From: a virus
Taxonomy: Duplodnaviria > Heunggongvirae > Uroviricota > Caudoviricetes
Virus record (IMG/VR): IMGVR_UViG_2617270992_000014
Reading direction: 5' to 3' (one strand)
DNA length: 41,104 nt
In this document: one piece after another, positions 27,011 to 31,716 of the stretch
Position numbering within the stretch: position 1 is the stretch's first letter
Layout: the number at the start of each line of letters is the position of its first letter
Position numbers and translations under genes: made by a program
The notes under the pieces: model-generated
What the model saw: the letters and a program-made list of their open reading frames with translations, nothing else
Told to the model about the DNA's origin: nothing
Databases searched by the model: none

Positions 27011-27034
27011 CCCGCCGCTGGCGGTTTTTTTTAT
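27011..27034 (+). terminator. Hairpin with T-run upstream of the major tail gene
   Basis: CCGCC-GCT-GGCGG followed by eight T residues. Confidence 0.45.
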
Positions 27035-27049
27035 TTTCAGGAGACGAGT

Positions 27050-27754
27050 ATGTCCTCTAATTTTGAGCGTTCGCAACTGACGAAAATTATGATTTCGTCT
27101 GCACCGGTAACAGCAGAAACCCTGGATTCTGCCAGCTATCTTGGCCTGAGCTGTACAATCAAAGAGGTGCAGTTTACCGCAGGACAAAAGCAGGATATTG
27201 ATGTCACCACGCTGTGTTCTGTTGAGCAGGAAAATATTAACGGTCTTGGTGCCGCGTCAGAGATTTCCATGTCAGGCAACTTTTACCTCAATGCTGCCCA
27301 GAATGCGTTGCGCAGTGCCTATGACAATGACACCACGTATGGCTTTAAAGTTATTTTTCCGTCAGGAAACGGATTTACCTTTATGGCAGAGGTGCGTCAG
27401 CATACCTGGTCTGCAGGAACCAATGGTGTTGTGGCTGCAACGTTTTCCCTGCGCCTGAAAGGTAAACCTGTGCTGACGACAGAACCGCTGAAAGTGAAGG
27501 TCGATTTAAACAGCACGCTGCAGGTTTCTGCCGGAGCGAAACTCGAAATGGTGGTTGAGGCTGCCGGTGGTGTGCCGCCTTATTCTTATGTCTGGAAGAA
27601 AGGTGGTTCTCCTGTTTCCGGACAGACGGCGGCAACGTTCAGTAAGGCATCAGCAGCATCCGGTGATGCCGGTGCGTATACCTGCGAGATTTCTGATTCA
27701 GCAAGCCCGGTTAACAAAGTGACCTCCACTTCCTGCACTGTAACCGTCAGTTAA
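27050..27754 (+). CDS. V: Major tail protein V with C-terminal Ig-like domain
   Basis: 234-aa ORF; C-terminal about 90 aa (PPYSYVWKKGGSPVSGQTAATFSKASAASGDAGAYTCEISD) has an Ig-like pattern as on lambda gpV; AGGAG upstream. Confidence 0.8.
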   Translation: MSSNFERSQLTKIMISSAPVTAETLDSASYLGLSCTIKEVQFTAGQKQDIDVTTLCSVEQENINGLGAASEISMSGNFYLNAAQNALRSAYDNDTTYGFKVIFPSGNGFTFMAEVRQHTWSAGTNGVVAATFSLRLKGKPVLTTEPLKVKVDLNSTLQVSAGAKLEMVVEAAGGVPPYSYVWKKGGSPVSGQTAATFSKASAASGDAGAYTCEISDSASPVNKVTSTSCTVTVS

Positions 27755-28140
27755 TGAGGATGGATGTGATGACTAAAAATATCCGTAATCTGGCACTGGC
27801 AACGATGTCGGGGTTTCGCCATAAAACCGTTGATGTGCCTGAATGGGAGGGAGCAACGGTTGTGTTACGGGAACCTTCTGCAGAAGCCTGGTTGCGCTGG
27901 CAGGAGATCGTTAAAGCCAGGGAAGATGATACATCGCCATCTGTTGCAGAGCGTGCCCGCCGAAATCTGGAGGCAGACGTTGAACTGTTCATTGATGTTC
28001 TGTGTGATACCGGGCTGCAACCCGTATTTTCAGAGGATGATCGTGAACAGGTGATTGCCGTGTATGGCCCGGTGCATGCCCGGCTTCTTCGCCAGTCTCT
28101 GGAACTGATCAGTGATGCCGGAGAGGTTAAAAAAAAGTAG
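27754..28140 (+). CDS. G: Tail assembly chaperone G
   Basis: 128-aa ORF between V and the tape measure gene, ending in a poly-A slippery site. Confidence 0.7.
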   Translation: MRMDVMTKNIRNLALATMSGFRHKTVDVPEWEGATVVLREPSAEAWLRWQEIVKAREDDTSPSVAERARRNLEADVELFIDVLCDTGLQPVFSEDDREQVIAVYGPVHARLLRQSLELISDAGEVKKK

Positions 28141-28442
28141 CACTTCCGGGGATGCGTTTTCTGATGATGCTGGCGCTCAGGATGGGGCGCACATTGTCAG
28201 AGTTACGCCGGGAAATGTCCGCATCAGAAATCATGATGTGGGCAGAATTTGACAGGTTCAGCCCGCTGGGGGACGAACGGGCTGATATCCGGGCTGCCCA
28301 GATTGTTTCAGCTGTTTACGGTGCGCAGGGGGTTAAAGTACCACTGAATGATGTGCTTCTTCAGTGGGAGCAGGAGCAGACAGAAGGCGCCTCAGATCCA
28401 TTTGCCGGGCTGGAAAACGCGCTTTTAACCGTGTCTCAGTGA
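27754..28442 (+). CDS. Tail assembly chaperone G-T fusion produced by programmed -1 ribosomal frameshift
   Basis: Slippery heptamer A AAA AAG at 28131-28137 at the end of G; the -1 frame is open from 28131 and continues through the 28152-28442 ORF. Confidence 0.6.
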
Positions 28443-28451
28443 GTCAACATA

Positions 28452-28472
28452 ACCGCTTCGGCGGTTTTTTTT
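28452..28472 (+). terminator. Hairpin with T-run between T and the tape measure gene
   Basis: ACCGC-TTCG-GCGGT with a UUCG-type tetraloop followed by eight T residues. Confidence 0.45.
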
Positions 28473-28482
28473 CGTCCGGAGA

Positions 28483-31400
28483 ATGAGTGTGGCGACATTA
28501 CGTGAACTGATTATTAAAATTTCGGCAAACTCCCGGTCATTTCAGTCAGAGATCTCCCGGGCTTCGCGTATGGGGCAGGATTACTACCGCACCATGCAGA
28601 ATGGAAGCCGACAGTCCGCTGCTGCATCCCGTGAAATGCGGCGTGCACTGGCAGAAGTGACGGATCAGATAAATACAGCTAAATCTTCGGCACTGAACAT
28701 GGCGGGGGCATTTGCCGGGGCTTTTGCTACCGGTCATCTTATTTCTCTCGCCGATGAGTGGAATTCAGTCAATGCCCGTCTGAAGCAGGCCTCACAGTCC
28801 AGTGATGATTTTCAGGCATCACAACGCGAATTAATGGCAATCAGCCAGAGAACGGGGACGGCTTTTTCTGATAACGCCAGCCTTTTTGCCCGCTCTGCAG
28901 CTTCCATGCGGGAGTATGGCTACAGTTCTGAGGAGGTACTGAAAGTCACTGAGGCGATCTCCACGGGCCTGAAATTATCCGGTGCCAGTACAGCAGAAGC
29001 CAGTTCGGTGATCACGCAGTTCAGTCAGGCACTGGCGCAGGGAGTGCTGCGCGGTGAAGAGTTTAACTCGGTGAATGAGAACGGCGATCGTGTTATTCGT
29101 GCGCTGGCTGCGGGAATGGGAGTTGCCCGTAAGGATCTGAAGGCCATGGCGGATAACGGAAAGTTGACTGCCGATAAGGTTGTTCCTGCACTGATTAGTC
29201 AGCTTGGGGCATTACGTGATGAATATGCGGCAATGCCTGATACGGTTTCATCCTCTGCAACCAAAGTTGAAAACGCCTTTATGGCCTGGGTTGGTGGTGC
29301 GAACGAGGCAAGCGGAGTGACGAAGACGCTCTCCGGTGTGCTGAATGGTATTGCAGGCAATATTGACACCGTGGCAACCGCTGCCGGTGCTCTGGTTGCC
29401 GTCGGGGTAGCCCGATATTTTGGCAATATGGCGTCTTCTGCTGGATCTGCAACTGCCGGATTAATTACTGCAGCCAGAAACGAAGTGGCTCTTGCGGAAG
29501 CGCAGCTCCGGGGGACGCAGATAGCAACCGCCAGGGCGCGTGCGGCGGTTTATCGTGCGCAACAGGCGGTCGCGGCTACCCGTGGTACTGAAAGACAGGC
29601 AGCCGCAGAAGCGAAACTGGCTGCTGCTCAGGCATCACTTACCCGTAATATTGCGGCCAGAACAGCAGCACAGACAACGCTGAATACTGTCACGTTAGTG
29701 GGGAGTCGTCTGTTAAGTGGGGCACTGGGACTGGTTGGGGGTGTGCCGGGGCTTGTCATGCTGGGGGCCGCGGCCTGGTACACAATGTATCAGAATCAGG
29801 AGCAGGCCAGAGAATCTGCACGCCAGTATGCCGCAACAATCGACGAAATTCGCCAGAAAACGTCGGCAATGTCGCTTCCTGAAGCGTCAGATAATGAGGA
29901 AAAGACGCGGCAGGCACTGAAGGAGCAGAACAGGTTAATTGACGAGCAGAAAAGTAAGATTAAATCCTTACAGGAAAAAATTGCTGGCTATCAGTACGTG
30001 CTGGCAAACCCGGGCTGGACAACCGATAACGGTTTTATGATTAACCACATGACGTCGGTAAAAACTGTCACAGAAGGGCTTGCCGAAGCAACAAATCAAC
30101 TGGCAGTTGAACAGTCCCGTCTCACTCAAATGCAGGGCAAAGCGCAATCCATTCAGGATGTGCTTGCCGGGCTGGAAGAACGACGGGTGGCGTTGATCCG
30201 TCAACAGGCGGCGGAACAAAACAAAGCGTATCAGTCCCTGTTGATCATGAATGGGCAGCATACCGAGTTTAATCGCCTTCTAGGGCTTGGTAATGAATTA
30301 CTTCAGCAGCGACAGGGGCTGGTGAATGTACCGTTACGGCTACCACAGGCAACCCTGGATGATAAACAGCAGACCGCACTGAATAACAGCAAGCGCGAAC
30401 TGGCTCTGTCCCGCCTTAAGGGGGAAGCGCGTGAGCGTGCCCGACTGGGTTATGCTGCGGATGATCTCGGCTTTGTGGGAGAGGCGTATCAGACAGCCAG
30501 ACAGAATTATATCAATAACTCACTGGATGCCTGGCGAAATAACCAGGCAAATAAACCCAAAGCGCATAAAAAGACCGAAGCGGAAAAAACAGAAGATATT
30601 TATAAACGGCTTATTAAACAGCAGAAAGAACAGATAGCACTGGCAGGGCAGAATACTGAACTGGCTAAGATGAAATATCAGGTCAGTCAGGGCGAATTAT
30701 CAACCCTGTCAGAAGCGCAGAAAAAAACGCTTTTGCAGAATGCAGCACTCATCGACCAGAAAAAGATTCGTGAGCAGCTTGCTGCGTATGAGAGCAGTCT
30801 GGCGGACAGTAATGCCAGTGCCCGGGCATCTGACGACGCGCAGTTGCTGGGATATGGTGAAGGCTCACGGATGCGTGAACGACTCCAGGAAATGTGGAGT
30901 ATCCGGCAGACGTTTGAGCAGAAAAATAACGAACTGCTGAGACAGTATCAGGCCGGAGAAATTGAAGAAGCCCTGTGGAAACAGGAGAAAGAACTGAATA
31001 AAAAATATCTGGAAGAGCGTCTCAGCGATCAGCAGGATTATTATGCAAAGGCCGATGCTTTACGTAATAACTGGAATCCCGGACTCCAGGAAGGACTGAC
31101 CAACTGGGCAGACAGTGCCACCGATTATGCTTCACAGGCGGCAGATGCTGTCGTTTCCACGATGGACGGGCTGGTATCAAATATTTCCGATGCACTGGCC
31201 GGGAATGTTGTGGAGTGGAGGAACTGGGGGAGTTCAGTTCTCCGGGAAGTTTCAAAAATTCTGATGAATGCAGCCATTGTTAACGGACTGAAATCACTCT
31301 CCGGTGCCGGAGGGTGGCTTGGTACGGTCGGCGGATGGATTTCGGGGGCGGTGGCAAACGCAAAAGGTGGTGTTTACACATCGGCAAATCTGAGTGCTTA

Positions 31401-31716
31401 CAGTAACACTATTGTGGATACACCGACGTATTTTGCTTTTGCGAAAGGTGCCGGGCTGATGGGTGAGGCCGGGCCTGAAGCTATCATGCCACTGACACGG
31501 GCAGCGGACGGCTCTCTTGGGGTCAGAGCCATTGGCAATGTGAATGGTGGCGGTGGATTTGTTTATTCTCCCGTGTATCACATCAGCATTCAGAATCAAG
31601 GGAGCAATGGCGAGATAGATGCGCGCTCAGCCAGGGGACTGGTGGATCTGATCGACAGCAGGGTTGTGTCAATTATGCAGTCATCGCGTCGGGATGGAGG
31701 ATTATACAGTGCCTGA
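28483..31716 (+). CDS. H: Tail tape measure protein
   Basis: 1077-aa ORF (GTG start) with extended helical, Ala/Gln-rich composition, immediately after G/T. Confidence 0.9.
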   Translation: MSVATLRELIIKISANSRSFQSEISRASRMGQDYYRTMQNGSRQSAAASREMRRALAEVTDQINTAKSSALNMAGAFAGAFATGHLISLADEWNSVNARLKQASQSSDDFQASQRELMAISQRTGTAFSDNASLFARSAASMREYGYSSEEVLKVTEAISTGLKLSGASTAEASSVITQFSQALAQGVLRGEEFNSVNENGDRVIRALAAGMGVARKDLKAMADNGKLTADKVVPALISQLGALRDEYAAMPDTVSSSATKVENAFMAWVGGANEASGVTKTLSGVLNGIAGNIDTVATAAGALVAVGVARYFGNMASSAGSATAGLITAARNEVALAEAQLRGTQIATARARAAVYRAQQAVAATRGTERQAAAEAKLAAAQASLTRNIAARTAAQTTLNTVTLVGSRLLSGALGLVGGVPGLVMLGAAAWYTMYQNQEQARESARQYAATIDEIRQKTSAMSLPEASDNEEKTRQALKEQNRLIDEQKSKIKSLQEKIAGYQYVLANPGWTTDNGFMINHMTSVKTVTEGLAEATNQLAVEQSRLTQMQGKAQSIQDVLAGLEERRVALIRQQAAEQNKAYQSLLIMNGQHTEFNRLLGLGNELLQQRQGLVNVPLRLPQATLDDKQQTALNNSKRELALSRLKGEARERARLGYAADDLGFVGEAYQTARQNYINNSLDAWRNNQANKPKAHKKTEAEKTEDIYKRLIKQQKEQIALAGQNTELAKMKYQVSQGELSTLSEAQKKTLLQNAALIDQKKIREQLAAYESSLADSNASARASDDAQLLGYGEGSRMRERLQEMWSIRQTFEQKNNELLRQYQAGEIEEALWKQEKELNKKYLEERLSDQQDYYAKADALRNNWNPGLQEGLTNWADSATDYASQAADAVVSTMDGLVSNISDALAGNVVEWRNWGSSVLREVSKILMNAAIVNGLKSLSGAGGWLGTVGGWISGAVANAKGGVYTSANLSAYSNTIVDTPTYFAFAKGAGLMGEAGPEAIMPLTRAADGSLGVRAIGNVNGGGGFVYSPVYHISIQNQGSNGEIDARSARGLVDLIDSRVVSIMQSSRRDGGLYSA

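Follow-up and report, generated by a model that had tools for sequence, protein, structure and literature searches.

The tail assembly chaperones gp13 and gp14 of phage HK97 (NP_037708 / NP_037707; gp13 is also the protein of PDB entry 2OB9) are linked by recoding: the RefSeq record of HK97 contains a joined coding sequence (CDS), NP_037707, with the note "translated due to a -1 frameshift." Here, we analyze a gene pair of this kind, G and T, in a 41,104-nucleotide (nt) stretch of viral DNA (IMG/VR record IMGVR_UViG_2617270992_000014, Caudoviricetes), referred to below as the window. Of 5426 complete genomes, 902 carry the element, an Escherichia coli prophage; it also occurs, with 95 to 97% DNA identity, in phages that include Evi and phi467. 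A first-pass annotation made from the letters alone had proposed that ribosomes slip at the end of G and continue into T. Our results indicate that the locus is very probably the G / G-T tail assembly chaperone recoding site of an HK97-like E. coli prophage, operated by a programmed -1 frameshift.

HK97 gp13/gp14 is the closest characterized relative, with the same combination of families, PF06222 and PF06223. In both HK97 and the window, the gene pair lies between the major tail gene and an HK97-type tape measure gene, T is in the -1 frame, the slip falls on the same aligned Lys codon, and the linker has the form K-V-x-x-P-G-x-x-F-L-M. The heptamer of HK97 is G GAA AAG and its G continues for 5 codons, whereas the window has A AAA AAG with TAG immediately after it. 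HK97 also has GTA in the T frame at the position of the window's ATG 28152, and its T and tape measure genes are separated by the moron gp15, which is absent from this place in the window. Other members of the HK97 group (HK75, HK633, and mEp234), whose G equals that of HK97 but for one residue, are ~61% identical to the window over the whole fusion. In Burkholderia phage Bcep176 (36% identical), a joined 69' is annotated as "lambda T equivalent."

For phage lambda, a review of recoding (Atkins et al. 2016, PMC5009743) gives a G:G-T ratio of ~30:1, set by low-level frameshifting, and states that both products are needed for tail assembly and absent from virions; the lambda G/G-T work cited there is by Levin, Hendrix and Casjens (1993) and by Xu, Hendrix and Duda (2004, 2013, and 2014). 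Lambda and the window share the genomic slot, the -1 shift onto an A-site A AAG, and a T protein in PF06223, whereas the lambda heptamer is G GGA AAG and lambda T, with 144 amino acids (aa), is longer. The profile of T-frame products aligns with lambda T from residue 1 of both, with the slip-site Lys-Val at the same position as in the lambda junction, which was defined by experiment (KVFDGELSFALKLAREMGR in lambda and KVALPGMRFLMMLALRMGR in the window). Homology to lambda is demonstrable, by Pfam and by profile, for T alone. A BLASTP comparison of the predicted window fusion with lambda G-T revealed no similarity, and we rejected the window G as a homolog of lambda G in the strict sense, since the window G matches only PF06222 and lambda G only PF06894 (Phage_TAC_2).

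Frameshifting in homologs of the window pair has been measured. The GeneTack "Phage_TAC" cluster comprises 41 frameshifted gene pairs similar to the HK97 protein (Antonov et al. 2013, PMC3711429); the pair is that of the window, from HK97-like prophages, and its two genes are annotated separately. With a GST-MBP reporter in E. coli, the cassette GCC_AGA_AAA_AAG_TAG, whose A AAA AAG TAG is identical to that of the window, yielded 7% +/- 0.79 frameshifting, and the cassette GCG_GGA_AAG_CCG_TAA yielded 6% +/- 0.61 (PMC3711429), so for homologs both the frameshift product and its efficiency have been demonstrated by others. In our comparisons, the 7% cassette is 100% identical to the junction of the Stx2-converting phage Stx2a_WGPS6, whose G-T is 63% identical to that of the window, and the 6% cassette is 94% identical to mEp390 (blastn-short). 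The tested cassettes represent the O157 Stx-phage type (63% protein identity) and the mEp390 type; neither includes the flanks found in the window, such as the upstream GGAGAGGUU.

Another well-described site, that of E. coli dnaX (gamma/tau, Rfam RF00382), has the identical A AAA AAG and is read by the same single tRNA-Lys. In E. coli K-12 dnaX, AGGGAG is followed by a 10-nt spacer, A AAA AAG, 6 nt, and a strong hairpin, and the shift reaches ~50%.

Results

G ends on an in-phase slippery heptamer with T open in the -1 frame

The first-pass annotation had given the end of G as GAG GTT AAA AAA AAG TAG, placed the slippery heptamer A AAA AAG at 28131-28137, and considered the -1 frame to be open from there through T. 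Reading the sequence and computing the frames bore this out. In the upstream open reading frame (ORF), positions 28120-28160 read GGA GAG GTT AAA AAA AAG TAG CAC TTC CGG GGA TGC..., which confirms the X XXY YYZ phase of the heptamer. The -1 frame is open from 28131, past ATG 28152, and up to TGA 28440-28442; the open G and -1 frames overlap by 10 nt, 28131-28140. The computed fusion runs ...SDAGEVKKK-VALPGMRFLMM..., so that the junction peptide ...EVKKK-VALPG... had been given correctly, and the peptide expected across the predicted G-T junction would be VKKKVALPGMRF. The description of A AAA AAG as a classic slippery sequence is also apt: in E. coli, -1 shifting is established for A_AAA_AAG, for G_GGA_AAG and, as the minimal version, for A_AAG on its own (PMC5009743). 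The features of the junction are as follows.

27769..28140, + strand: gene G, tail assembly chaperone, 123 aa, the zero-frame product (PF06222; PDB 2OB9 match; RefSeq start)
28120..28127, + strand: sequence resembling a Shine-Dalgarno (SD) element, GGAGAGGU, 5' of the slip site; probably no -1 stimulator (spacing 3-7 nt; not conserved in relatives)
28128..28130, + strand: TAA stop in the -1 (T) frame, the upstream limit of the T-frame opening (computed frames)
28129..28136, + strand: homopolymer of eight A (A8), followed by G at 28137; holds the slip site and is a possible RNA polymerase slippage tract and indel hotspot (computed; length variants in relatives)
28131..28137, + strand: slippery heptamer A AAA AAG, with AAA in the P site and AAG in the A site (sequence and frames; comparison of 46 junctions)
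28138..28140, + strand: TAG, zero-frame stop of G, abutting the slip site (sequence read)
28137..28151, + strand: linker codons V-A-L-P-G, read in the -1 frame only and "intergenic" under standard annotation (T-frame coding constraint)
28137..28442, + strand: T segment, 101 codons and TGA in the -1 frame, which joined to G residues 1-123 would give the 224-aa G-T (PF06223; phrog_14766)
28152..28154, + strand: ATG at which annotations begin T; not conserved (start-type codon at the aligned position in 13/46 junctions)

The start of G is most likely ATG 27769 and not 27754, because GAGGA lies 8 nt upstream of it, the Pfam match begins there, and RefSeq uses that start; G then has 123 aa and G-T 224 aa. 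G matches Pfam PF06222 (Phage_TAC_1) over its full length, 1-124/124, with 195.2 bits against a gathering threshold of 25 (E 4e-58), and PDB 2OB9, the sequence of which equals the translation of HK97 G (gp13), over residues 1-123 (E 6e-50). T matches PF06223 (Phage_tail_T) with 72.1 bits against a gathering threshold of 25.9 (E 5e-20). One profile of 224 residues, phrog_14766, spans G and T as a single protein.

The bare motif is not rare. AAAAAAG occurs 16 times on both strands of the window, with 9.35 copies expected and at least 16 in 3 of 100 shuffles. This abundance, together with the A-run indel variants present in databases, would fit a chance A-run without recoding function, or a decaying prophage with remnants of G and T. 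The architecture at 28131 is, however, unique among the copies: only this one lies in phase right where a long ORF closes, after 139 open codons, and has an immediate zero-frame stop and a 101-codon extension in the -1 frame. In addition, two synonymous positions of the slip site are invariant among relatives, both domains are intact, with scores that exceed the Pfam thresholds by a wide margin, and the full tail module is present. Chance or decay is thus scarcely credible as an explanation, the comparative data having already effectively refuted it.

Elsewhere in the window, at 20415-20433, T TTA AAA stands in phase three codons short of the stop of ORF 19951-20433. The -1 frame from there runs into a 585-aa ORF, 20433-22190, whose own ATG overlaps the stop; this is probably an ordinary gene overlap rather than recoding.

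The slip motif and the linker are conserved across divergent relatives

We compared the window with 80 viral contigs (96-100% G identity) and 46 loci from GTDB species-representative genomes (42-71% identity) that span Enterobacter, Serratia, Pectobacterium, Proteus, Morganella, Pantoea, Yersinia, Orbus, and others; phages of the HK97 group and Burkholderia phages were added. Junction statistics were calculated for 46 distinct junctions, i.e., 45 divergent relatives and the window, leaving out the loci with T outside the -1 frame, all of which carry indels. The alignment was anchored on the slip motif; the C terminus of G and the T-frame peptide K-V-x-x-P-G-x-x-F-L-M independently give the same register.

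In every intact locus, among the 46 species genomes and the 80 viral contigs alike, T follows G in the -1 frame. The exceptions are indels: A7 in place of A8 in L013, A6 in place of A7 in L109, an indel inside G in L094, an 11-nt deletion in L084, and, in L128, from a degenerating symbiont genome, A9 with another frameshift. A AAG is invariant in 46/46 junctions from Enterobacterales to Orbaceae, including two synonymous third positions, whereas wobble positions near it vary by 1.3-2.0 bits, and the remaining Lys codons of G comprise 181 AAA and 101 AAG. The distributions over the 46 junctions, with the number of junctions in parentheses, are given below.

Heptamer: A AAA AAG (31); G GAA AAG, the HK97 type (7); A GCA AAG (4); G GCA AAG (3); G GGA AAG, found in mEp390 and identical to that of lambda (1)
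A-run length: 3 (8), 4 (7), 6 (3), 7 (20), 8 (7), 9 (1)
Codons from AAG to the G stop: 0 (30), 1 (3), 4 (1), 5 (5), 8 (6), 11 (1)

The region immediately downstream is constrained at the protein level. Among T-frame codons +1 to +9, Val is kept in 38/40, Pro in 39/40, and Phe in 40/40 relatives, and the linker Pro codon has entropies of 0.00/0.17/1.94 bits at codon positions 1/2/3. To judge from this pattern of substitutions, the "intergenic" linker is evolving as T-frame coding sequence. In 30/46 junctions, the constrained stretch lies beyond the G stop; only ribosomes shifted by -1 from G can translate it.

These data bear on the possibility that G and T are two independent genes, with T translated from ATG 28152 or Met 28164, perhaps by termination-reinitiation, and no functional fusion. 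The public records of the element that were inspected do all annotate a separate T CDS, the ATG lies 11 nt after TAG, and the +10 Met is invariant. Yet the aligned position of ATG 28152 is a start-type codon in only 13/46 junctions, being ACN, GTA, or CTN in the others, and in the window, neither GGGG, directly next to this ATG, nor GGAGAGG, 25 nt off, is spaced to serve it as an SD. The +10 Met (28164 in the window) is the first start-type T-frame codon in 27/46 junctions, but a start there would leave codons +1 to +9, which are under protein-level constraint, untranslated. Moreover, the curators of HK97 and Bcep176 annotate a fusion, and fusion products were seen for two homologous cassettes. 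We therefore consider independent expression of two genes very improbable.

The A8 tract raises another alternative, in which RNA polymerase adds one A and the resulting A9 mRNA encodes an identical G-T, as the main or a substantial second route. A-runs as long as this one (n > 7) have been implicated in programmed transcriptional realignment (PMC3711429); Thermus dnaX uses A9 (PMC5009743, PMC3711429). The product would be the same protein as that of a ribosomal slip, and the reporter assays in PMC3711429 do not separate the two routes. What is conserved, however, is the in-phase A AAG and not the run length, which is only 3-4 A in 15/46 junctions and 6-7 in 23/46. The G_GGA_AAG cassette with three A still gave 6% (PMC3711429), and the three or four A of lambda (G GGA AAG), HK97 (G GAA AAG), and mEp390 (G GGA AAG) are too few for polymerase slippage; therefore, the ribosomal mechanism is ancestral and family-wide. 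A main or substantial transcriptional route in the window is accordingly improbable, while transcriptional slippage may be a minor contributor in the A8 lineage. The junction peptide cannot separate the two routes because the site is an A8 homopolymer: mass spectrometry across the junction would reveal the presence of the fusion but not its origin.

The length of the slip-site homopolymer also varies in database entries (A7 at L013:2861, A6 at L109:1859, and A9 at L128:1854), and shifted ORFs appear in Logan assemblies (P0001 and P0006). The tract behaves as a replication or sequencing indel hotspot, and such indels would abolish G-T or lock it on. In L084:2346-2409 (JGI metagenome 3300055986, contig Ga0250194_04094), an 11-nt deletion relative to an intact Stx-phage-type junction (L138) drops TAG and the next bases and places T in frame with G, in the same register as a -1 slip; this is a natural or artifactual allele that makes GT only (protein P0002, 222 aa). 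The database proteins P0001-P0003 were rejected as natural in-frame G-T fusions; they come from indel-bearing assemblies or from a deletion and are no evidence for the fusion.

The cassette appears to rely on intrinsic shiftiness

A check for a downstream stimulatory structure, suggested in the first-pass annotation, found none: folds at the slip site are no better than those of shuffled sequences (z of +0.85 and -1.2), RNAalifold predicted 0 pairs downstream of the slip site across 28 divergent junctions, and an Rfam scan yielded no DnaX-like element and nothing else relevant. The first solid hairpin lies too far off, beginning 23 nt past the heptamer at 28161, and it is not conserved. Its pairing in relatives holds in 53% of cells for the outer helix and 80% for the inner helix, and its covariation score of 0.077 is below those of slid controls (0.110 and 0.096).

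Two stable local hairpins, 28161-28200 and 28216-28244, lie inside T (120-nt fold z = -4.8), the second with a predicted 11-bp stem. As stimulators, both were rejected for their distance from the slip site.

The upstream element was rejected as well. GAGGU ends 3 nt and GGAG ends 7 nt before the heptamer, whereas SD stimulators act from 9-14 nt upstream for -1 shifts and from 3 nt for +1 shifts (PMC5009743). With 3-7 nt instead of 9-14 nt (10 nt in dnaX) and no conservation, GGAGAGGU does not qualify as a -1 stimulatory SD. The window thus differs from dnaX on both sides of the heptamer, with an SD-like element 3-7 nt upstream and the first solid hairpin 23 nt downstream. No dedicated RNA stimulator is evident, and the cassette relies on intrinsic shiftiness; as dnaX-like stimulators are not in place, an intrinsic slip of a few percent is expected, which is also the level measured for the tested homologs.

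The stop codon next to the slip site may contribute. A stop directly after AAG may help through a longer vacancy of the A site that allows a slip in the P site only. In the seven junctions whose heptamers can re-pair in the A site only (A/G GCA AAG; L100, L101, L112, L113, L115, L117, and L119), the G stop comes right after AAG in 7/7, while stronger heptamers tolerate 1-11 additional codons before the G stop. The pattern, drawn from approximately two clades only, is suggestive of an adjacent stop that would compensate for weak heptamers as a "shifty stop."

An indel at a recoding site was also seen in dnaX. In E. coli ETEC1730, dnaX (L139, NZ_CP122832.1 3752880-3753021) is marked as a pseudogene with a frameshift; the slippery run there is GCAAAAAG (A5), compared to GCAAAAAAG (A6) in K-12 (L141, 493330-493440). 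This one-base homopolymer indel is possibly an assembly error.

G and T occupy the conserved slot of a complete tail module

G and T sit between the major tail and tape measure genes in a full tail module. Upstream are HK97-gp10-like, tail-completion, and Ig-domain major tail protein genes; downstream are the gene of a 1077-aa HK97-type tape measure protein and then lambda M/L/K/I-like genes. The flanking features are as follows.

27050..27754, + strand: gene of the major tail (tube) protein with a C-terminal Ig-like domain, the upstream synteny marker (phrog_158 major tail protein, E 8e-109; Pfam Ig_2/Ig_3, weak tail-tube matches)
28451..28472, + strand: terminator-like hairpin with T8 between T and the tape measure gene (in HK97, putative terminators are annotated at equivalent positions)
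28483..31716, + strand: tape measure protein gene, 1077 aa, the synteny marker downstream; its product presumably binds G (Pfam Phage_HK97_TLTM, TMP_3, Tape_meas_lam_C)

The V-G-T block is bracketed by strong terminator-like hairpins with T8 tails, at window 27012-27032 and 28451-28472. An Rfam match to isrK at 28387-28471, ending at the second terminator, is below threshold (18.7 bits against a gathering score of 50, E 0.36).

As had been anticipated, standard annotation gives separate genes: the inspected RefSeq and GenBank records list two or three CDS, with no join. The GenBank record of phage vB_EcoM-606R7 (L002:1916-2053, corresponding to window 28112-28252) has three "tail assembly chaperone" CDS. 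One of these, a 46-aa ORF in the +1 frame across the slip site, is almost certainly a spurious call that resulted from the unrecognized frameshift.

Discussion

The geometry of the slip site, membership of G and T in their families, synteny, and comparative constraint were all observed directly in this work. Together with the data on two homologous cassettes, the identity of the genes, their synteny and frame relation, and the conservation of the slip site support the G-T fusion proposed in the first-pass annotation, formed through the conserved frameshift that long-tailed phages use for their tail assembly chaperones.

By our model, most ribosomes translating G would terminate at TAG 28138 and produce the 123-aa chaperone, while a minor fraction, ~5-10% as expected from the tested homologs, would slip back by 1 nt. 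The slip would occur while tRNA-Lys decodes AAG 28135-28137, with another tRNA-Lys on AAA 28132-28134; both tRNAs would re-pair on AAA AAA, 28131-28136. Reading would restart at GUA 28137-28139 and end at TGA 28440, yielding the 224-aa G-T (...EVKKK-VALPGMRF...). The slip would be driven by A AAG itself, which is intrinsically shifty for the single tRNA-Lys of E. coli, possibly with help from the adjacent stop. By analogy with lambda, the G part would bind the tape measure protein and the T part would recruit the major tail protein, and a fixed low slip frequency would set the G:GT ratio for tail assembly.

Several points weigh against this model or limit its reach. The measured efficiencies belong to homologous cassettes and not to the exact window sequence and, with no stimulatory structure, the efficiency in the window could fall below that of the tested homologs. 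Given the length of the A8 run, not all G-T need be ribosomal. Unlike most relatives, the window has an ATG (28152) six codons past the slip site and 11 nt beyond the stop of G, and re-initiation there could yield some independent T; the invariant +10 Met (28164) could, in principle, also start free T.

The site, an unannotated one, adds nothing new in kind to a mechanism that is thoroughly known; within the HK97 gp13/gp14 family, curators have already annotated the frameshift, and its efficiency has been determined for two homologs. For the element, however, RefSeq and GenBank omit a predicted 224-aa fusion that, if lambda is a guide, is the form in which T acts. A join with the ribosomal_slippage qualifier would correct the proteome for proteomics, phage engineering, and studies of phage defense; tail assembly chaperones have been reported as triggers of Avs17 immunity (bioRxiv 10.64898/2026.01.04.697583).

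For the family, it is conceivable, though we hold it unlikely, that in A8/A9 lineages a substantial share of G-T comes from a polymerase-added A and that G:GT is set jointly by transcription and translation. If so, run length, which ranges from 3 to 9 A in relatives, would be an evolutionary dial for the G:GT ratio, and the tract would also be a replication-slippage switch, with the A7/A9 variants in databases abolishing G-T or locking it on. The junctions also provide a comparative series of heptamers at one homologous site (A AAA AAG, G GAA AAG, G GGA AAG, and A/G GCA AAG), which could be used to study the trade-off between the strength of a shift site and an adjacent stop codon.

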